64,000 bases of DNA from a virus (Duplodnaviria; Heunggongvirae; Uroviricota; Caudoviricetes): IMG/VR virus record IMGVR_UViG_3300010388_000318, positions 14,190 through 78,189 of that record; one strand, written 5' to 3'. This document shows, piece after piece, positions 38,073 through 55,904 of the stretch. Every line of letters starts with the position of its first letter. The stretch's first letter is position 1. The translations under genes were made by a program, and so were the position numbers. Below the pieces are notes generated by a model. That model saw only the letters and a list, made by a program, of their open reading frames with translations, made no database searches and was not told where the DNA came from.

Positions 38073-38581
38073 TTACACTTCTGTAGTGCTTTTTCTTTTG
38101 CCTCTACAAGCGTATTGAAGGATTTAGACGTACCACCAGCATCAGGGTGATATACCAAAGACATTTTACGGAATGCCTTCTCTACAGCAGTCCTGTCATT
38201 CGTAGGCATCATACCAAGCACGTGCCAGATAGATGATGCAGTCTTCTCTACGATCTTTTCACGCACTGTTGTAGGAAGGTTCAGACGATGGATAGAAAGA
38301 TAGTTGTCCTTTCTCCTACCGTCCTTTGTTCTCATAGTGAGAGTGATCATCTCACCATTATCGCTCTGTGTGAACGAAAGATCAGGCCATACAAACTCTG
38401 GTTCTTTGTGATTGAACATTAAGAACGCAAAAGTCATAATCATGGCCATAATGAAAAACATGAAGCCAGATTGTGGAAACATGAAGTGGGTAAAAGCAAG
38501 AAGGGGAGCAAACCCCATACCAATAAGATATGATTTCATTTCACAAATCCTCATAATAAAGTGGTGGGATTCTGTTTCCAC
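38069..38581 (-). CDS. membrane-anchored J-domain (DnaJ-like) protein
   Basis: C-terminal KAFRKMSLVYHPDAGGTSKSFNTLVEAKEKALQK has the HPD J-domain motif; N-terminal hydrophobic helices. The true start is probably an internal Met (MKSYLIG...). Confidence 0.55.
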   Translation of the reverse strand: METESHHFIMRICEMKSYLIGMGFAPLLAFTHFMFPQSGFMFFIMAMIMTFAFLMFNHKEPEFVWPDLSFTQSDNGEMITLTMRTKDGRRKDNYLSIHRLNLPTTVREKIVEKTASSIWHVLGMMPTNDRTAVEKAFRKMSLVYHPDAGGTSKSFNTLVEAKEKALQKCK

Positions 38582-38916
38582 GCTCCCACCGGGCGCATTT
38601 GAATTAAGCCGCTAGGGCGAATTCAACAGAGCTATTGTCGTTAGCTGCATTTACGTTTTGTGGCGCTTTGCCAGTCAATCAGTCTCGAACCGCCTTATTC
38701 CGTTCCAGTCGATCCTAGTTCACCCCCATCATAGACACTGGTCATCAGTTTCTGTTTCCCATTCTAGAAACTGCCTCTAACGCATCATGGGAATGTGCGC
38801 CAGTGTCTATGGTGGAGGTGACGGGTACTGCCCCCGTGTCCTCAGAACCTTTATTGTTGATCGTCAACAACTGATAACTCTATTTAGTATGATTCGTTTC
38901 TCAAGTCAACTCTTTT

Positions 38917-40065: not shown

Positions 40066-40309
40066 TTTGGTCTTCCTTTAAAATATAGTTTGGTTTGTTT
40101 GGTTTCAACTATATTTTCAGGTGGACCTATTGCGTCATACGGCTAGAAAGCTGAGCCGCCATCCTTATTTGTCATTTTATCATTCCTTTTATCTAAAGCT
40201 CGTTTGAGCCTTTCACGGTGCCTTTCGGCTTCTTCGTTAGTAAGGAAATACTTACCTTCGAAAACTCTATCACTTGTGTATTTATTCATGATCTATTTAT
40301 ACAAAAAAA

Positions 40310-40387
40310 TGGTGCTCTGTGTGGGATTCGAACCCACGACGACAGAATTTTAGAGATTCCCGCTCTGACCAACTGAGCTAACAAAGC
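40310..40387 (-). tRNA. tRNA with anticodon CUA (amber-suppressor type); CCA encoded
   Basis: Minus-strand cloverleaf: GCTTTGT-TA-GCTC-AGTTGGTCA-GAGC-G-GGAAT-[CTCTAAA]-ATTCT-GTCGTC-GTGGG-TTCGAAT-CCCAC-ACAGAGC-A-CCA. U33 and A37 present; anticodon C34-U35-A36. Confidence 0.6.
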
Positions 40388-40395
40388 ACTATATT

Positions 40396-40581
40396 TTAGA
40401 CTCTAGTAACTGAGATACCAAAGCCTGAGTTAGGTACATACATCAAACCATGATGACCTTCAACAAGTTTTTCTATAGGACAACCCATTTCTACAAGATC
40501 ATCGATTGCTTCTTGACGAGTGAGACGAAGTTCTCCAAATTGGTTTCCTTCGTCCCACCATTGTGCTTGATAGAAGTACAT
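40396..40581 (-). CDS. hypothetical small protein (61 aa)
   Basis: Small ORF upstream of the tRNA. Confidence 0.3.
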   Translation of the reverse strand: MYFYQAQWWDEGNQFGELRLTRQEAIDDLVEMGCPIEKLVEGHHGLMYVPNSGFGISVTRV

Positions 40582-40584
40582 TAC

Positions 40585-40797
40585 TTACTCCATTCCTAGA
40601 TGTTCACGAAGTGCTTGTTCGTCGATATCGCTCATACCGATCATTGGCTTTGACCAATTGCAAATTTCCTGAACAAGAAGTTTGGCAAACACATCAAGAT
40701 CAAACTCCCAATAAAGGTGTCCTCTGACCTTTGCTCTATCTTCAATCTCTTTAAGAGTCACAATCCAACCCCTTGGTTGAACTTCTTGATGAACCAA
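40585..40797 (-). CDS. hypothetical small protein (70 aa)
   Basis: Small ORF; overlaps the ligase gene end. Confidence 0.3.
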   Translation of the reverse strand: MVHQEVQPRGWIVTLKEIEDRAKVRGHLYWEFDLDVFAKLLVQEICNWSKPMIGMSDIDEQALREHLGME

Positions 40798-41813
40798 GGA
40801 CGTGCTTCGTTAGCAATTGCGCTACCAAGCTTCTTAGGATCGATCTGGCTAGCCACAATGGTATCCATCTCTTCCTTAAGAACGTCATTGTATACCCAAC
40901 GAATGAAGTCACCCATGCTCTTCATTTCAAAGGGCAGAAGCTGTTCACGTACTAGGTTGTCCAAGCCCTGTTCAAGACGTGCTTCAGTGACAGTTGCAGC
41001 GACGAAAGCCCTAATGTTTTCGACAGCCTCAACATCCACAGCAGCGAGAGTACGTACCTTTGAAACAGAATGCTTTTCACCCTTGACCTTAAACCAAGTA
41101 CCGGAGTCATTCCATCCTTCAGATACACATGTCCATACAACGCCTTCACCGATTCCAGAGACCCCGAAATACTTTCCAACTGGACATTCATTTTCAACTG
41201 CCTCTGTAATTTCGATCATCTTGTTCTGAGCAATCTCAGGGAACTTGAAGTCGATATCTGCTTCCCAAGTTGGGAATGTGTCGATGTTGAATACACCATC
41301 TTCAGGAAGATGGATATCAAACTCACCAACAGGCAACCAATGAGTAGTATCATCAGAGAGGACAGCCTTGACAGCAAACACAACAAACATCTTAGGAAGT
41401 TGTGAAAGTGCAACACCCTTCTGAATACCACTACCACACCATTCGCCAAAGATGGCGATCTTCTTGATGGGTACGTGAGGAATCCAGATTTCGCTCATAG
41501 CCTGATTGACAACATCACGCCAAATAGATTCATTCTTCATTTGATGAAGCATGAAACCAGCGTTATCCTGTGTCAAAGACAGCACACGCTCACGAGACTG
41601 AAATGTGAAGCTATCAGTGTCAACATCATACACGATACCAGCATTGGTACCATGAAGCTTTACAGTGCCACGAAACTTCAGTGTAGGGAGAGGCTTAGAT
41701 GCATCATAGATAGCATCGCCATTCTCATCCTTACCAGCGTAACGGGTGTGTGTTTGTACGTGACGAATCACATTACGAAATTGTTCAACGCTAGGAAATT
41801 TAATCATTTTCAC
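40758..41813 (-). CDS. RNA ligase, Rnl2 family
   Basis: Motif I KFRGTVKLHGTNAGI (KxHGxN, as T4 Rnl2 EKIHGTNFS); nucleotidyltransferase-like layout; located near tRNA genes. Confidence 0.6.
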   Translation of the reverse strand: MKMIKFPSVEQFRNVIRHVQTHTRYAGKDENGDAIYDASKPLPTLKFRGTVKLHGTNAGIVYDVDTDSFTFQSRERVLSLTQDNAGFMLHQMKNESIWRDVVNQAMSEIWIPHVPIKKIAIFGEWCGSGIQKGVALSQLPKMFVVFAVKAVLSDDTTHWLPVGEFDIHLPEDGVFNIDTFPTWEADIDFKFPEIAQNKMIEITEAVENECPVGKYFGVSGIGEGVVWTCVSEGWNDSGTWFKVKGEKHSVSKVRTLAAVDVEAVENIRAFVAATVTEARLEQGLDNLVREQLLPFEMKSMGDFIRWVYNDVLKEEMDTIVASQIDPKKLGSAIANEARPWFIKKFNQGVGL

Positions 41814-42029: not shown

Positions 42030-42413
42030 TTACATTGTTCCCTTAATATAACCGTAACCAAGGTCAAAGCAATACTCAAGGCGCTCATAACCGTAGAACT
42101 TCATGTCTTCAAGTTCGCCTTCAGCATCAGCGATGATTTCGATGGCACGAACACGATCAACACCTTGAACCAGAGCCATCGTATCCTTGATACGCTGTTC
42201 AAAGCGATCACGATTGATAACCTGCTGCTTCTTCTCTTCTTCCATCTGTTCATTCAGACGAACAACAAGACGCTCATAATCAGCATCAAATTCTTCCATC
42301 GAAGCAAACTGAGCATAACGAGGACGGCTACCATATACGTCCTTATACAGGTCCGAATAGATATCGCCATCATGCGAGTTGGTCAGAGCGTTAATGTCCC
42401 GAAGAGTAAGCAT
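42030..42413 (-). CDS. hypothetical protein (127 aa)
   Basis: Intact ORF. Confidence 0.35.
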   Translation of the reverse strand: MLTLRDINALTNSHDGDIYSDLYKDVYGSRPRYAQFASMEEFDADYERLVVRLNEQMEEEKKQQVINRDRFEQRIKDTMALVQGVDRVRAIEIIADAEGELEDMKFYGYERLEYCFDLGYGYIKGTM

Positions 42414-42450
42414 TTTGAAGTCCTTTCGCTTTCGATGGACCCCTTATATG

Positions 42451-42804
42451 TTATGATTCGTGTTTGGTCAAGAGGTTTTTTGCTCTTTCTTTTACCCATG
42501 GGTCAAAAGGCAGAAAAGCACCAGATGCTCCTGTCCAATCGGCAAAGGCTTCATCATAAAAACCAATCTTTTTTGTCATACCCAAGGTGTTCCACATTTC
42601 CTGTAGAGACACCAATTCATCAGCCCATTGCTGCCACTTATCATCAGGCACAACATTGTCATCCATGTGATAGTAGATATATGAATGAACCAGCATTTGA
42701 ATGCGGCGCTGACGAATCTTTTCAGATAACGTCTGCACCGCATTCACCATAGGGTCTTCAGGTTCGTCTTCAAGAAAGTCCAAAAGTGACACGGATTTCC
42801 TCAA
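42451..42804 (-). CDS. hypothetical protein (117 aa)
   Basis: Intact ORF. Confidence 0.35.
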   Translation of the reverse strand: MRKSVSLLDFLEDEPEDPMVNAVQTLSEKIRQRRIQMLVHSYIYYHMDDNVVPDDKWQQWADELVSLQEMWNTLGMTKKIGFYDEAFADWTGASGAFLPFDPWVKERAKNLLTKHES

Positions 42805-43348
42805 TCAAAGCAGCATCAGTTGAAACAACCCCAAGGCCATGTGAATGCGGGAAGTTCAGCTTAGGAAGGTCAATCTCATTGAAGAAACGACCAACGTCAT
42901 CAGGGAATGAGTATGTGTCATGGAACATGATCAGTCCACCTTCACGGACAAACGGACTCCAAGTCTTATAATCATTGCTCACTGCATCATAGATATGATA
43001 TCCATCAATGTGAAGAATGTCGATAGGCTTATCCCATGTCTTGGCTAGCTCATTGAAGTCTGCCTTGATGATTTCCACATTATCAAACTGATAGGTGTTC
43101 TTGAAACCAACTACCTTGTCATAGGCATTACGGAAACCAGCATTGGCATCACCTTCGAACCAATCAACACCATAAACAGTGCCGATTTCATCCAGAGCAA
43201 ATGCGAATGTCGAGAAACCATAGTCAACGCCAAGGTCAACAGTAGTTGTTGGCTGTAGACGATTGACAGCCCAACGAGCAAAATCGAAGTGACCTGTCCA
43301 TGCAGATAGAATGTTCTTCACTGCATAAATTTTAGCGTTCTTATCCAT
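42770..43348 (-). CDS. class I SAM-dependent O-methyltransferase (CmcI/Methyltransf_24-like), likely sugar-modifying
   Basis: [14 protein letters not shown] ... [13 protein letters not shown] ... GGLIMFHDT pattern; last gene of the rml operon, overlapping rmlB. Confidence 0.55.
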
Positions 43349-44378
43349 TACCTAATCTTTCTCCAAAATATTTCTTATTGCGTAGTGGTTTCCACCACCA
43401 TTCATTTTCTAGATACCAATCAATAGTCTTTTCTAGACCAGTTTCAAATGATTCTTGTGCATTCCAATTAAGCTCATTCTCAATCTTTGAAGGATCAATA
43501 GCATAGCGACGATCATGACCGGGCCTATCCTTCACCATCCTAATCAAATCATGGCGATATACTCCATCATTCATCTTCTTGTCAACAATGGTGCAAATCG
43601 CCTGTACGACCTCTAAGTTGGTGCGCTCTTCACGACCACCAATGCAATATGTTTCACCGACTTCACCATAGATTGCGGCCCTTACCAGTGCTCTTGCATG
43701 ATCATCCACATAAAGCCAATCACGAACATTCTCACCAGTTCCATACACTGGCAGTTCTTTTCCTTCAATCGCATTAAGAATGTTCAAAGGAATAAGCTTC
43801 TCAGGGAAGTGATATGGACCATAGTTGTTAGAGCAATTCGTCACGATGACAGGAAGACCATATGTTTCATGCCATGCCCTCACAAAGTGATCAGACGAAG
43901 CCTTAGAGGCTGAATATGGCGAACTAGGTGCATATGATGTTGCCTCAGTAAACACACCACTATCAAATGGCAAGTCACCAAACACTTCATCAGTTGAAAC
44001 GTGATGTAAAACAAAAAGATTATTTTTTGATTTCCAATAGTGCAGACATGCCTCTAGAAGCTTATACGTACCAACCACGTTTGTATGGATGAAAGCAAAA
44101 GGATTATCGATTGAACGATCAACATGACTTTCAGCAGCCAAGTTCATACAGATATCAATATTATGACCATCAAGTGTCATGGCCATAAGGTTCTCATTGG
44201 CAATATCACCATGCACAAAAACAAAGCGTTCATTGTTTACAATGTCACGAAGAGAATCCATGTTACCAGCATATGTTAGCTTGTCATAGCATACGACATA
44301 ATGTCCCTCTTGGATCAATAGGCGACATACAGCAGAACCAATGAAGCCAGCACCGCCTGTTACTAGAAACCTTATCAT
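43341..44378 (-). CDS. rmlB: dTDP-glucose 4,6-dehydratase
   Basis: [21 protein letters not shown] Rossmann motif, [11 protein letters not shown] catalytic YxxxK, 345 aa typical length. Confidence 0.85.
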
Positions 44379-44905
44379 AATACAATATCCTTGAATAGTG
44401 GTGCGGCTGCATCTTTCTCAGAGATTTCTGATGCTCCTAGAAACGCCCAATCAATGTTAAGATCAGGATCATTCCAAAGGATGGAACCTTCACTTTCCTT
44501 GTTATACACATTGTCTACCTTATAGACCACAACAGCATTAGATGTTAGTGTCATAAAGCCATGGGCAAACCCCTTGGGAATAAATAGCTGCCTAGCATTA
44601 TCTGAAGATAGCACAGCACAAACATGTTGTCCATATGTAGGTGATTCTGGACGAATGTCTACAGCAACATCAAGGATCGATCCCCATGCACAACGAACTA
44701 GCTTTGTCTGTGCGTATATTCCACGTTGAAAGTGAAGACCACGTACAGTACCTATCTTATACGAAATACTTTGATTGTCTTGTACCCAACGAGGCATCTG
44801 CAAATGATCAACATAAACTTCTGAGAATACGCCTCTGTCATCCTTGAATTGAGTAGGCTGTATAATCAACACACCATCAATATGCGTATAATTAAAAGAA
44901 GTCAT
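44375..44905 (-). CDS. rmlC: dTDP-4-dehydrorhamnose 3,5-epimerase
   Basis: 176 aa cupin; [40 protein letters not shown] motifs typical of RmlC. Confidence 0.8.
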
Positions 44906-45773
44906 CGTGATTTGCTTTCTTCACCAGATACGCACCATAATCAGTCTTGCTAAACATTTTTGCACGTTCTAGCACCTGTTCCTGACTCATCCAACCATTG
45001 TTATAGGCAATTTCTTCAAGACATGCAATCTTCATACCCTGCCTACGTTCAATCGTACCAACGAATGAGCTAGCTTCCAATAGGCTTTCATGGGTACCAG
45101 TGTCAAGCCATGCATAGCCATAACCAAGCTTCTCAACACGTAGCTGTTGATTGTCTAGATAAATCTGGTTAACGTCTGTGATTTCAAGCTCACCACGACC
45201 AGAAGGCTTAATCGACTTTGCGATATCCACAACATCATTGGTGTAGAAGTACAGACCAGTTACAGCCCAATTTGACTTAGGCTTTGAAGGCTTCTCAACG
45301 ATAGAGTTTGGACGGCCCTTCTTATCGAAACCAACAACACCGTAGCGTTCTGGATCATCAACATGATAGGCAAAGACGGTTGACTTTCCAAGAGGGAAAC
45401 AACGTGCAGTCTGTAGCTTGTCCCATAGACCATTACCATGATAGATGTTATCACCAAGGATCAAGGCAACATCATCACCACCAATAAACTCTTCACCAAT
45501 CAGGAATGCTTCAGCAATACCTGCGGGAATTTCTTGTTCTGCATAAGTGATCTTGATACCATATTGCGAACCATCACCTAGAAGGTTCTGGAATGCAATC
45601 TTATCACGTGGCATGACGATAATCAAGATATCACTAATACCCGCTTGCATCAGTGTAGCAAGCGGGTAGTAGATCATTGGCTTATCATATACCGGAAGTA
45701 GTTGTTTTGAAATGCTTAGGGTAGCGGGATACAACCTTGTCCCGTTACCAGCGGCCATGATAATGCCCTTCAT
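44892..45773 (-). CDS. rmlA: glucose-1-phosphate thymidylyltransferase
   Basis: [38 protein letters not shown] is the canonical RmlA N-terminus; 293 aa. Confidence 0.85.
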
Positions 45774-46784: not shown

Positions 46785-46860
46785 TGGTAGGGATAGCGAG
46801 ATTCGAACTCGCACTGAAGAGATTTTAAGTCTCCTGCCTCTGCCTATTGGGCTATATCCC
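46785..46860 (-). tRNA. class I (short variable arm) tRNA with anticodon UAA (Leu codon UUA); G1-U72, A73, CCA encoded
   Basis: GGGGATA-TA-GCCC-AATAGGCAG-AGGC-A-GGAGA-[CTTAAAA]-TCTCT-TCAGT-GCGAG-TTCGAAT-CTCGC-TATCCCT-A-CCA. Confidence 0.55.
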
Positions 46861-46864
46861 CATA

Positions 46865-47449: not shown

Positions 47450-48379
47450 ATGATGCAAAGTTTTAAGAAATTTTTGGAAGAATCTAAGTTCAACAAAGGG
47501 ACTATCATCTTTGCTGAGCCTGTCCATGGTAGCCACTCTAAGCCACCACAACAGCCAAAGCTTATTGATAAAGAACCTGTGCATGGTAAGCATTCTAAGC
47601 CAGTAGGCAAGCTCAAGGAAGATCGTGAAAATCTTTATAATCTTGATAAGGACGGCAATCAACACATAAAAGACTTTATTCGTAAAAACCCTAATAAACA
47701 TCTTGGGGATGATTCTTTTGAAGCGCATCTAACTCTAGACCCAACACGTGAGCATTTTGAAAAAAATCCTCATCATGCATCGCTGAAAAAATATTCAAAG
47801 CAATCATGGGATACCAATAAAGAGTTGATTAATAAGGCTTCAGGAAAGCCTTCTTTATTTGAACCAAAGATTCATGACTCAAAAACAGATATTGAATATA
47901 AGAATGAAAACGCTCAGATTCATAAAGAGCATGTTAATAGTCTAGACGCATCTTTTCATCATCCAAATGCTGTCTTACAACATGACGTGCATGTGTTTCA
48001 TGGAACCAATAAGTTCAATCCCGGTGAAGAAGCCAAGAAGGGTAGCGGTAGAATTACCATACCAACATATCTGTCAACATCGATTGATCCTAGAACAGCA
48101 CATGATTTTGCTGGTACTACTGAGGATTCTCATATCATTCATCTGCACCTTAAGAAGGGACAGAGAGCACATTATCTTGGAAGCCATTCAAACTTTGATA
48201 GTGAAAAGGAAGTGATGCTTCCTAGAAACTCAACACTACAAATTCATCCGACACCAACAGTTACACATAATGGTGATGGAACAAAGACACACATCTGGCA
48301 TGGCCATGTTGTTGGCGAAGCACACCCTGCTCCACGTAGACAAGAACACGACAAAGACCAATTGAAATTTAATTTCTAA
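47450..48379 (+). CDS. capsid-targeted ADP-ribosyltransferase-like protein (Alt-like injected effector), paralog 1
   Basis: N-terminus MMQSFKKFLEES resembles the T4 capsid-targeting sequence MKTYQEFIAE. NAD-binding-type motifs VFHGTN, YLSTS and EKEV; repeats PVHG(S/K)HSKP. Confidence 0.5.
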   Translation: MMQSFKKFLEESKFNKGTIIFAEPVHGSHSKPPQQPKLIDKEPVHGKHSKPVGKLKEDRENLYNLDKDGNQHIKDFIRKNPNKHLGDDSFEAHLTLDPTREHFEKNPHHASLKKYSKQSWDTNKELINKASGKPSLFEPKIHDSKTDIEYKNENAQIHKEHVNSLDASFHHPNAVLQHDVHVFHGTNKFNPGEEAKKGSGRITIPTYLSTSIDPRTAHDFAGTTEDSHIIHLHLKKGQRAHYLGSHSNFDSEKEVMLPRNSTLQIHPTPTVTHNGDGTKTHIWHGHVVGEAHPAPRRQEHDKDQLKFNF

Positions 48380-48389
48380 GGATAATAAG

Positions 48390-49343
48390 ATGAAAACATT
48401 TAAACAATTTATAGAATCAGAAAAAGTGCATACTCCTTCTCAGGAAAAACATTCCAAAAAGTATGTTGAGCCACCTATTGCTAATTATATTCCTTCACAT
48501 GGAAAGCATTCTATTGAAAAAAAATATGTAAAGAATTCTATTGAAAAAAAGTATGTTGAGCCACCTATTGCTAATTATACTCCTTCACATGGAAAGCATT
48601 CTGTACAGGAAGCCAAACTTCCTGAGACGATGGGTCATAAAGAATTTGAATCACACAACCCAAACCCTAAAATTCATCCTACTGTTACGGGTGTGCACGA
48701 GCATCTTGATCCACCAGAAGAAAAATGGAATAGATCACTAAGAAAACATGAAAGAGAAGCTGTTGCAGAATATACAGCATCAAGTGCTAGTACAAATCAT
48801 GAGCTTCTTGAAACTTCTAAGGGAAATCCTTCAAACTTTGAACATAAGCCAGAAGATAGTGCTTGGGATAAAGATTGGAAGGATGGTAATAAAGCAAGAC
48901 ACCATAAAATATTAAAGGGTCTAGACAGTGTTTTGAATAGATCGAGAGTGCCAAGAAACCTTACAGTGTATCATGGTATCAATGCCAAATCAAGTGAGAC
49001 ATTCAACCCCGGCGAACTTGCAAGTCAACATCCCGATAGACACATTAGAATGCCAGCATTTATATCAACTAGTGTCGATCCTGCTATTTCGTCTAGTTTT
49101 GCAAGACCGGAAAAGTGGGAAGGAACTGTAAAAAAACCCACTATCACACACATGCTTCGTATTAATTTAAAGCGTGGACAAAAAGGTTATAGATATGTCG
49201 GTGAACGCTCTTCAATTGCTGCTGAGCGTGAAGGTATTATAAGAAGAAACACTGTATTGAAAATTAGTGAGCACCCCACAGTAGTGCATCATCCAGAAAC
49301 TGGTGGACACATTCATGTGTGGGATGCTCACTTAGTTGATTAA
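48390..49343 (+). CDS. capsid-targeted ADP-ribosyltransferase-like protein, paralog 2
   Basis: N-terminus MKTFKQFIESE; VYHGIN, FISTS and AEREGI motifs collinear with paralog 1; internal 54-bp tandem duplication (48461-48514 and 48549-48602). Confidence 0.5.
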   Translation: MKTFKQFIESEKVHTPSQEKHSKKYVEPPIANYIPSHGKHSIEKKYVKNSIEKKYVEPPIANYTPSHGKHSVQEAKLPETMGHKEFESHNPNPKIHPTVTGVHEHLDPPEEKWNRSLRKHEREAVAEYTASSASTNHELLETSKGNPSNFEHKPEDSAWDKDWKDGNKARHHKILKGLDSVLNRSRVPRNLTVYHGINAKSSETFNPGELASQHPDRHIRMPAFISTSVDPAISSSFARPEKWEGTVKKPTITHMLRINLKRGQKGYRYVGERSSIAAEREGIIRRNTVLKISEHPTVVHHPETGGHIHVWDAHLVD

Positions 49344-52307: not shown

Positions 52308-52318
52308 TTATGTATTAT

Positions 52319-52609
52319 TTATACCTTGTTTTTTTCTTCTTTTTCTGCTGCTAGGCGGCGCTTCATTTTTACCCTATGTCCAAGATAGAATGGAATTCCA
52401 AAAGGAGCGGCAATGATAAAGACACCCACAAATACTGGCCAAAAAATAGCCAGAAGGACAACTGGCCAAAAAGCCTCTTCTAAATCATGCCTATTAAGCA
52501 TACCCATCTTGTATGAACAAATCACACCGATAACAATAACGCCGATCAACCAAATCCAAAACATATCAATTTTCCTTCTTAAAACGTTGACCGAGCTTAT
52601 AGATAGCAA
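52319..52609 (-). CDS. small membrane protein (96 aa)
   Basis: Two hydrophobic helices. Confidence 0.3.
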   Translation of the reverse strand: MLSISSVNVLRRKIDMFWIWLIGVIVIGVICSYKMGMLNRHDLEEAFWPVVLLAIFWPVFVGVFIIAAPFGIPFYLGHRVKMKRRLAAEKEEKNKV

Positions 52610-54605: not shown

Positions 54606-55520
54606 TTAATCTCTTTTGTCGTTCTTATCGCCATCAATGAGTTTCAAACCATATTCATTGATTTGATTCTGTGGGATAAAACTTGCTTTCCTCTTTAACT
54701 GATTATTCTTAAAAGGACTATAGTCCACATGATGATGCCAGCGATTGAACTTCCATACAACAGATGCCACATCAGGATATGTATCTGCTAGCATCTTAGA
54801 CTTAGCAAGAGTGCCTTCAACTTCATAGAAGTCTTTGCTGTTGCCGCCGCCCATACGTTGAGTAGTGACCTTACCTTGTAGGAAAGCATTCAACTGAATA
54901 GTCGCCCATCCAGCAGACAATGCATCCAAACACAAGATAGTATCTTCATTGTAACGACCACGCCATTTGAATGGTATGTCATTACGAATAAGAAGGCAAG
55001 AGTAAATTCTTGTGTTCAATGTATATGGTCTAGCTTTAGCATCACTCTTACAAAAAGAATAATAGTTGAAGCCAGCAATCGCTAGGTTTTCATACCTGTC
55101 AACGAAATCCTCAGTCGCTACAAAGTTAACATTTGTCCTCATAGGAGTCTTCATGTTTCTATTTAGACGATGGAAGTCATCAAGATTGTCATCAAGAACC
55201 CAATGCCATGCATGACCTTCAGATACAGAATGTTCCCATGCAAAGTTACGTGCAGGACCCGGTCCAGTACTCTTAGTCAATCCAAGATCATCAAGTACCT
55301 CATACTCTTCCTTGTACTTCTTAGGAAGGATTAGAAGCTTCTCAGCACCAACAACCTTAGCATATTCGTCAAACTCTTCTTCCTCTACGATAACCCTGAA
55401 AGGAACGCCAAGTCTATTCAGCGCCCTATTGGTTAGCATATTGGTATATCGACCTTTCGATACGATATACACAGGATAACGGTTTTCACGTCTATTCTTG
55501 TATCCAACGTTTTGCAGCAT
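54606..55520 (-). CDS. hypothetical protein (304 aa) with DxD-like WVLDDNLDD motif; possible nucleotide-sugar transferase
   Basis: Intact ORF. The glycosyltransferase call rests only on the DxD-like motif and the genomic context, so it is weak. Confidence 0.3.
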   Translation of the reverse strand: MLQNVGYKNRRENRYPVYIVSKGRYTNMLTNRALNRLGVPFRVIVEEEEFDEYAKVVGAEKLLILPKKYKEEYEVLDDLGLTKSTGPGPARNFAWEHSVSEGHAWHWVLDDNLDDFHRLNRNMKTPMRTNVNFVATEDFVDRYENLAIAGFNYYSFCKSDAKARPYTLNTRIYSCLLIRNDIPFKWRGRYNEDTILCLDALSAGWATIQLNAFLQGKVTTQRMGGGNSKDFYEVEGTLAKSKMLADTYPDVASVVWKFNRWHHHVDYSPFKNNQLKRKASFIPQNQINEYGLKLIDGDKNDKRD

Positions 55521-55758
55521 TTTTGCCTCGCTCTAGTTCTGGATACCAAGCACTCTTAGTCTTTGGTGTCAATTTCTGACCAATCAACTTAGAAAAAGCA
55601 TCTAGGTCTTCTTGGTTTTCGAAACGAAAAATAATCTTAGCGAATGGTGGTTTACTTTCCTGAACAAATTCAGGCATATCAACCCATTCGTTTGTTGTTG
55701 GCTCTTCCTCCTGAAGAGTCTCTTCAGTATCATCAAACCATTTTTCTAATGATGGCAT
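55492..55758 (-). CDS. small acidic hypothetical protein (88 aa)
   Basis: Intact ORF; acidic N-terminus. Confidence 0.3.
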   Translation of the reverse strand: MPSLEKWFDDTEETLQEEEPTTNEWVDMPEFVQESKPPFAKIIFRFENQEDLDAFSKLIGQKLTPKTKSAWYPELERGKNAAKRWIQE

Positions 55759-55826: not shown

Positions 55827-55904
55827 TGGTAGTCCTGACGAGATTCGAACTCGTACTATAAGCGGTTTTGAACCCCTCGCCTCTGCCAGTTGGGCTACAG
55901 GACC
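55827..55904 (-). tRNA. class I tRNA, anticodon most likely CAA (Leu codon UUG); one G.G mismatch in the anticodon stem; G1-U72, A73
   Basis: GGTCCTG-TA-GCCC-AACTGGCAGA-GGC-G-AGGGG-[TTCAAAA]-CCGCT-TATAG-TACGAG-TTCGAAT-CTCGT-CAGGACT-A-CCA. Paralogous to the tRNAs at 46785 and 63034. Confidence 0.45.

Follow-up and report, generated by a model that had tools for sequence, protein, structure and literature searches.

The window, by which we mean the whole 64-kb stretch of DNA that was analysed, derives from a T4-like myovirus with a GC content of 40.3%, and carries on its minus strand a class-I tRNA gene of 78 nt with the anticodon CUA (tRNA-Sup-CUA, 40310..40387). ARAGORN placed a tRNA at 40310-40387(-) with the anticodon cta at position 35, and the Rfam model RF00005, whose gathering score is 29, matched 40313-40387(-) with 61.1 bits (E=8.6e-11 for the whole window) and flagged zero non-canonical pairs; orthologues in other phages, described below, support the same assignment. 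The original prediction of a CUA-anticodon tRNA at this position was therefore confirmed, with the addition of the strand, which it had omitted. ARAGORN printed the name 'tRNA-Pyl' for this gene, because the program uses that label for the CUA anticodon.

At minimum free energy, the 78 nt fold into a cloverleaf. Its acceptor stem (GCUUUGU/ACAGAGC) has 7 bp with the single wobble U4-G69, and is separated by U8 and A9 from a D arm of the form GCUC-AGUUGGUCA-GAGC, the loop of which contains G18 and G19. The anticodon arm (GGAAU-CUCUAAA-AUUCU, as stem, loop and stem) is followed by a variable region of 6 nt, a T arm (GUGGG-UUCGAAU-CCCAC), A73 and a gene-encoded CCA end. The regular cloverleaf described beforehand, with its 7-bp acceptor, A73, encoded CCA and TTCGAAT T-loop, was thus right in every detail, and so was the anticodon register, as the RF00005 covariance-model alignment puts C-U-A at positions 34-36. 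The loop also contains A36-A37-A38, the motif required for i6A37-type modification in E. coli. A matching CUA tRNA in an ENA assembly of the same sample (ERR1597337; L062 6704-6781) is identical to the window copy, with which it was collapsed at deduplication, and the gene is therefore no local artefact. This sample is an ENA/Logan metagenome, and its project, PRJEB15239, was not found in any publication. A search of IMG/VR with the exact tRNA pattern gave zero matches. The gene itself is new to the collections searched, but genes of its kind are known already, with annotated examples from cultured phages.

On the minus strand, the order of features is an Rnl2-like RNA ligase gene, a short ORF, tRNA-Sup-CUA, a T-run and a T4-type late-promoter motif. 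The RNA ligase (40758..41813, minus strand) was assigned through Pfam PF09414 (E=2.3e-15) and a weak NCBIfam Rnl2 match. The ORF, taken from the ORF list (40396..40581, minus strand), encodes 61 aa, gave no family match, and has its stop codon 8 nt upstream of the 5' end of the tRNA gene, with which it is probably co-transcribed. The late-promoter motif TATAAATA (40294..40301, minus strand) lies just 3' of the tRNA and its T-run and would mark the start of the next transcription unit. This motif is enriched in the window, where 12 copies were counted against 3.75 +/- 1.78 expected, 11 of the 12 being on the minus strand. Another copy, at 52316-52323 (minus strand), ends 9 nt before a tRNA-Ser(UGA) gene, which suggests that some of the phage tRNAs are transcribed late. 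A sigma-70-like promoter directly 5' of tRNA-Sup-CUA (TTGGTA-17-TAAAAT) was considered and set aside, being within chance expectation and not conserved in the closest relative of the locus.

The T4-like character of the phage is seen in genes for gp6-, gp7- and gp8-like baseplate wedge proteins, gp5, gp53, a T4-type baseplate protein, tail fibres and gp4, together with gp32, gp59, gp33 and a Dda-type helicase. At the protein level, the nearest cultured relatives are the Sinorhizobium phage phiM12 group, Caulobacter phage Cr30, Rhizobium phage RHph_I1_18, Melnitz, pelagibacter myophages and cyanophages, all about 30% identical; near-identical phage DNA was not found in INPHARED, and a scan for related loci with the 418-aa protein at the right end of the window returned one unrelated contig only. 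The window holds 17 further tRNA genes (16 detected by ARAGORN, the remaining one by Rfam only). CCA is encoded in all 17 recognised tRNAs, but not in the tRNA-like gene at 63865-63937. At 38513-38913 (minus strand), 1.4 kb from tRNA-Sup-CUA, lies a permuted two-piece tmRNA (Rfam tmRNA_permuted, 97.5 bits; alpha_tmRNA, 88.5 bits) with the tag AANDNSSVEFALAA. It precedes gp33, as it does in Melnitz and the pelagimyophages, an arrangement described as a trait of this phage clade (PMC9004378). Since it is a clade feature, and a two-piece tmRNA is present in seven further relatives (L204, L221, L240, L256-258 and L262), it has no particular link with the CUA tRNA. The host probably belongs to Alphaproteobacteria, judging by the type of tmRNA, the cultured phages nearest to this one and the homologues of RmlB, the last of which point there loosely, at 60-64% identity, and not decisively. 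The rmlB-like gene belongs, with genes resembling rmlA and rmlC, to a dTDP-sugar gene set at 43341-45773 (minus strand).

The conservation of the locus was surveyed in 61 IMG/VR loci centred on a relative of the window RNA ligase. The CUA tRNA is patchy among them, being present in 3 of the 61. In the closest (L001), the ligase is 75% identical, so that it is a conserved upstream neighbour, and is followed in the same order by an orthologous 61-aa ORF, a CUA tRNA 6 nt later, a T-run and a tmRNA, with the TATAAATA motif about 55 nt past the tRNA. The two tRNAs are 83% identical; pairs 4-69 and 6-67 have changed in a compensatory manner, and the anticodon loop is unchanged. The more distant T4-like contig L006 (198 kb) carries its CUA tRNA at a different position.

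A blastn search of INPHARED with the 78-nt query matched 22 records. The best of the matches listed are 79-89% identical and are annotated as tRNA-Sup, tRNA-Sup-CTA, tRNA-Pyl or tRNA-OTHER; for several matches of lower rank, the record shows no tRNA at that place. Identities of 88-89% over 66 nt were seen with Yersinia phage fHe-Yen9-04, Serratia phage BF, the Erwinia pEa_SNUABM phages and Pectobacterium phage CBB; the CUA tRNA of the T4-like Rhizobium phage RHph_I1_18 is 81% identical to the window copy, and the annotated matches also include XacN1 and Sinorhizobium phage Phosso. The earlier view that CUA tRNAs are essentially restricted to pyrrolysine or recoded systems was therefore wrong, as tRNA-Sup genes occur in cultured phages using the standard code (XacN1, RHph_I1_18). 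The anticodon arm, GGGAAUCUCUAAAAUUCU, is identical between the window tRNA and the tRNA-Sup-CTA of fHe-Yen9-04 (L307 1499-1571), as is the D arm, so that one anticodon-arm sequence is common to two unrelated groups, the T4-like phages and the jumbo phages of Enterobacterales. This sharing of both arms suggests either horizontal spread or the convergent optimisation of one suppressor design.

Eleven related phage CUA tRNAs were aligned and examined for covariation, with 500 shuffles and slid registers serving as controls. In this alignment, 95.7% of stem cells are paired and double-sided changes are found in 15 of the 21 pairs, while none of the 500 shuffles reached the observed pairing and covariation, and the slid registers came nowhere close. 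The loop CUCUAAA is invariant in all 11 of these diverged tRNAs. Given this covariation in the stems and the constancy of the anticodon loop, tRNA-Sup-CUA is under selection; judged by these substitutions, it is a structured tRNA and neither a chance set of hairpins nor a decaying copy. The wider distribution of such genes was sampled by scanning IMG/VR with one narrow pattern (UCUCUAAAA, 9-14 nt, GGGUUCGAAUCCC), which returned 117 stretches, 116 of them CUA tRNAs according to ARAGORN and many on contigs of more than 100 kb. A similar pattern in JGI metagenomes gave 37 more CUA tRNAs, mostly inside tRNA arrays, and none of these 37 is an orthologue of the window tRNA. With a crude local test, in which coding coverage was compared with and without TAG read-through, 23 of 85 CUA-tRNA loci were possibly TAG-recoded and 62 were not.

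The window itself uses the standard code. In a greedy gene set, 92-94% of its length is coding under this code. Coverage is 0.922 under code 11 and 0.938 when TAG is read through, with mean lengths of 242 and 243 aa, and the 64 kb, of which late structural genes (baseplate, tail fibres and gp4) make up about 26 kb, contain no in-frame TAG. Pairs of ORFs of at least 40 aa each that are separated by a TAG all ran antisense to the real genes or in a different frame from them, and none lay on the coding strand. In a greedy gene set, the stop codons were TAA in 58 cases, TGA in 25 and TAG in 3. One of the three TAG-ended ORFs, at 42165-42752 (plus strand), is spurious, as it is antisense to two called genes. 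Two genuine TAG-ended genes thus remain among about 80 (about 2.5%), namely the gp4-like head-completion gene (26133..26612, plus strand; phrog_218, E=2.2e-61) and an ORF of 88 aa (55492..55758, minus strand), which has the tandem stop TAG ACG TGA and was also called in a Logan assembly (L300 6957-7223). The statement that every gene end checked uses TAA or TGA was consequently nearly right, failing only for these two.

In both genuine cases, an in-frame backup stop follows, 1 codon downstream in the 88-aa ORF and 13 codons downstream in gp4. Read-through of the gp4 TAG would add X and 13 residues until a TAA, giving a product that ends ...GLTF-X-DIPKSMYRLLYKL. Conservation of this extension was rejected, given that relatives with 91% identity also end in TAG and have a wholly different extension; 34 of 40 gp4 relatives end in TAA. 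Programmed read-through of phage genes, as had been proposed, accordingly left no sign in the 64 kb, where there are no TAG-joined ORFs, coverage hardly differs between the two readings and the gp4 extension is unconserved.

Rarity of TAG was borne out in the count of two genes in about 80, but it is modest in extent. The TAG share of stops in GC-matched T4-like relatives is 8.9%, and the window alone is not clearly different (p=0.02 for 2/80, 0.14 in a binomial test with 3/67, and 0.27 in a Fisher test). Pooling the window with its close relatives and L001 gave 9/228 TAG stops against 100/1121 (Fisher p=0.011), an approximately twofold depletion. In the sister locus L001, coverage was 0.877 and rose to 0.879 when TAG was read through, which is no gain. 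RHph_I1_18 is a standard-code phage over its genome of 171 kb (0.935 vs 0.947), yet about 12% of its greedy ORFs end in TAG, including those for primase, peptidyl-tRNA hydrolase and the tail tube, in comparison with about 2.5% for the window phage by the same greedy count. In L006, which also carries a CUA tRNA, the DNA polymerase gene ends in TAG. Avoidance of TAG is thus weak and not general among carriers of CUA tRNAs, and because L006 and RHph_I1_18 end essential genes in this codon, a weak or tightly timed suppressor fits better than a strong one. As a separate observation on L006 (12305-15979), UvsX lies in frame four codons past the DNA polymerase TAG with no other stop between them, and suppression would fuse the two.

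The amino acid with which the tRNA is charged was approached with anticodon-masked isotype HMMs, which were home-made from 554 phage tRNAs, had a cross-validated accuracy of 68% and over-call Lys as a sink class. As a weak hint, the window tRNA scored highest as Lys (42.0 bits, with Asn at 34.6 and Arg at 33.4), and the L001 and L006 tRNAs came out as Arg and then Lys. Pairwise similarity to typed tRNAs was ambiguous between Lys, Met, Arg and Ile. Conserved features of the aligned tRNAs are G1-C72, C2-G71 (in 9 of 11), A73, a 4-bp D stem with G18G19, and U20. The window tRNA has U20 in place of the Arg determinant A20, and an origin from tRNA-Arg(UCU) by deletion of 1 nt from the loop was dropped, as the Arg determinants A20 and C35 are both absent. 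A73 is a determinant for Lys, whereas Gln prefers G73 and U1-A72, and Alphaproteobacteria are often without GlnRS. In 1990, Normanly, Abelson, Miller and colleagues reportedly found that CUA-bearing bodies of the Arg, Ile, Met, Thr and Val types are mostly charged with Lys in E. coli, and others with Gln. Given the presence of A73 and the charging reported for this amber-suppressor series, our guess for the inserted residue is Lys first and Gln second.

Considered together, these observations suggest, with a probability of roughly 0.7, that the gene encodes a functional phage amber suppressor belonging to a widespread group of tRNA-Sup(CUA) genes in large lytic phages with the standard code. 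Judging by the layout of the locus, the tRNA would be the last part of a minus-strand transcription unit that begins with the RNA ligase and the 61-aa ORF, and would be excised by host RNase P with 3' trimming, CCA being already encoded. It may then be charged by a host aminoacyl-tRNA synthetase, for which LysRS is a tentative first guess and GlnRS the second, from the Lys/Arg-like body, A73 and U35. By established decoding rules, the CUA anticodon should pair with UAG and compete with release factor 1. The phage is largely insulated from its own suppressor, with no gene in the 64 kb needing UAG to be decoded; the cost of such a suppressor would be low, since TAG is hardly ever the stop codon of a phage gene and an in-frame backup stop lies close behind it in the two exceptions. 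Two benefits seem most likely. The suppressor may buffer amber nonsense mutations, as a low-cost trait that perhaps precedes recoding, or it may mildly extend host proteins from genes that end in UAG. A requirement for the expression of particular phage genes is less likely. A model in which a stop codon is rare and a suppressor is then acquired has been published, with acquisition following stop-codon depletion in AT-rich phages (Borges et al., bioRxiv 10.1101/2021.08.26.457843).

A more elaborate arrangement, in which the suppressor, the two-piece tmRNA and an ArfA-like protein form a module for sabotaging and rescuing termination, was judged very improbable. If it were true, read-through of host UAG codons would send ribosomes into 3' untranslated regions and mRNA ends, where the phage tmRNA and the ArfA-like protein would tag the products for proteolysis and recycle the ribosomes, and the nearly TAG-free phage genes would be spared, relying on RF2 alone. 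The protein concerned (171 aa; 58739-59254, minus strand) has an N-terminus, NPIARSLRSAHLKPKIVRAKKGKGSYRRDKK, that resembles the ribosome-rescue motif of ArfA. Its match to Pfam PF03889 (E=3.3e-5, 23.7 bits) is slightly below the cut-off, and searches of PDB and NCBIfam gave no useful match. The 32-aa ArfA-like motif shares 66% identity with a part of Caulobacter phage Cr30 that carries no annotation, and the C-terminal part matches a hypothetical protein of Melnitz.

Other readings of the tRNA gene were also weighed. The phage could be partly TAG-recoded (code-15 type), so that the tRNA translates in-frame TAGs in genes outside the window, for example those for lysis or capsid proteins. The literature strongly associates Sup-CTA tRNAs with TAG recoding, 23 of the 85 IMG/VR loci gained coding density with TAG read-through in the crude test, and the window is only about a third of the expected genome, the rest of which probably amounts to at least 100 kb. 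This reading was nevertheless considered unlikely, as the late structural genes, the class that is usually recoded, contain no in-frame TAG over about 26 kb, L001 gained no coverage, and cultured RHph_I1_18 keeps the standard code over its whole genome, as does XacN1. RF2 or a dedicated aminoacyl-tRNA synthetase was not found among the 43 window proteins compared with Pfam, PHROGs or NCBIfam, a scan that took in only part of the small ORFs. Another possibility was a neutral relic, in which the anticodon of a former sense tRNA has mutated to CUA and the product is weakly expressed or not charged, and serves no purpose. Such an origin would account for the lack of an identifiable target, and would suit phage tRNA arrays, which turn over fast, as well as the patchy occurrence of the CUA tRNA in the ligase-centred survey. 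A relic should decay, however, most readily in the anticodon loop, whereas the 7 nt of this loop are invariant across the 11 diverged sequences, the nucleotides of tertiary interactions are all intact, and compensatory changes have arisen between phages whose neighbouring proteins are 75% identical; we therefore regard a relic as quite unlikely.

A role outside decoding, as a decoy or substitute for host nucleases that target tRNAs, would give meaning to the adjoining Rnl2-like RNA ligase in the window and in L001, by analogy with tRNA repair in T4, and to the Lys/Arg-like body, tRNA-Lys being the target of the PrrC anticodon nuclease. A cleaved sense tRNA could not, however, be replaced by one with a CUA anticodon, known anticodon nucleases recognise the anticodon loop, which is different here, and the CUA tRNA of RHph_I1_18 adjoins neither of that phage's RNA ligases, so that this role is very improbable indeed. 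The probability of a pyrrolysine tRNA is close to nil, and the identity was refuted by structure. It is suggested by the CUA anticodon and the default label of the program only. A tRNA-Pyl has a 6-bp anticodon stem, a 3-nt variable loop, a tiny D loop without G18G19 and one base between the acceptor and D stems, and is accompanied by pylS and pylBCD. The window tRNA, on the other hand, has a canonical 5-bp anticodon stem, G18G19, a UUCGAAU T-loop, two bases between the acceptor and D stems and a variable region of 6 nt, and no PylS-like or PylBCD-like protein was present among the 43 window proteins scanned.

The suppressor reading places the gene beside the tRNA-Sup(CUA) genes of standard-code lytic phages, namely those of XacN1 (a Xanthomonas jumbo phage with two copies), fHe-Yen9-04, BF, pEa_SNUABM, CBB and RHph_I1_18. 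The window tRNA has in common with them the class-I cloverleaf, the CUCUAAA loop and a place among phage tRNA genes, and the window likewise resembles the cultured carriers in its standard code and in having no identifiable target genes. RHph_I1_18 is similar also in being T4-like, and its record carries a tmRNA (SsrA) note. The window tRNA differs from the cultured examples in its acceptor and T stems, through compensatory changes, and its genomic position differs from that in the known carriers except the uncultured sister L001. The loop with its closing pair, U-CUCUAAA-A, matches that of E. coli Su7 (tRNA-Trp CUA). The T4 psu+ mutants (McClain 1970, cited in PMC8386662) show that amber suppressors can be carried, and put to use, by a phage of the T4 type. 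Su7 and T4 psu+ were, however, single-step mutants selected in the laboratory, whereas the window gene is natural and conserved across diverged phages. The XacN1 authors translated in silico past each of its 18 amber stops, and neither hidden homology nor a read-through target emerged (PMC5852040). In code-15 phages (crAss-like, Lak and others; bioRxiv 10.1101/2021.08.26.457843, PMC11210395), a phage CUA tRNA is likewise expected to compete with RF1. Unlike them, the window has no in-frame TAG, does not become more densely coding when read with code 15, and comes from a T4-like lineage that probably infects Alphaproteobacteria. The recoded phages recognised in this analysis have Gln-like tRNAs (U1-A72, G73), in contrast to the G1-C72 and A73 of the window tRNA.

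The gene reveals no new mechanism. It is another example of a known phage tRNA type, already present in many large standard-code phages; amber suppressors encoded by such phages are a recognised puzzle, given that the genes are conserved. To this class the window adds a T4-like, probably alphaproteobacterial lineage with clear orthology and covariation and with almost no TAG stops. The gp4 TAG with its 13-codon extension provides a natural handle for mass spectrometry, and the 'tRNA-Pyl' label of ARAGORN is of practical value as a caution in annotation.

Several minor observations were made along the way. The genome of RHph_I1_18 (MN988519.1; L303-L306) is annotated with genes for a GatB-like protein, peptidyl-tRNA hydrolase, a CCA-adding enzyme and tRNA-His guanylyltransferase, as well as Pnk, RNA ligases 1 and 2 and peptide deformylase, which amounts to a rich set of tRNA and translation genes. 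Among the other tRNA genes of the window, three with Leu anticodons (UAA, CAA and UAG; 46785-46861, 55827-55904 and 63034-63110, minus strand) are short, at 77-78 nt, and the long variable arm seen in tRNA-Leu of bacteria is missing from them; a Leu-like D stem of 3 bp (GCC-CAAnnGGCAGA-GGC) and A73 are retained, and the same short type is present in L001, L046 and RHph_I1_18 (tRNA-Leu(taa), 78 nt). The tRNA found by Rfam alone and missed by ARAGORN (62128-62199, minus strand; 33.6 bits) has the loop CUUCCAA, implying Gly(UCC), and an unusual D arm. A tRNA-like gene at 63865-63937 (minus strand), to which ARAGORN assigned the four-base anticodon 'cgaa', has an odd loop of 6 or 8 nt, a Gln-like D arm and no CCA, and is below the Rfam gathering score. 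Elsewhere in the window, two adjoining ADP-ribosyltransferase genes (PF03496) lie at 47450-49343 (plus strand), and a TET-associated glycosyltransferase gene (PF20691) at 54606-55520 (minus strand) suggests that the phage DNA is hypermodified.
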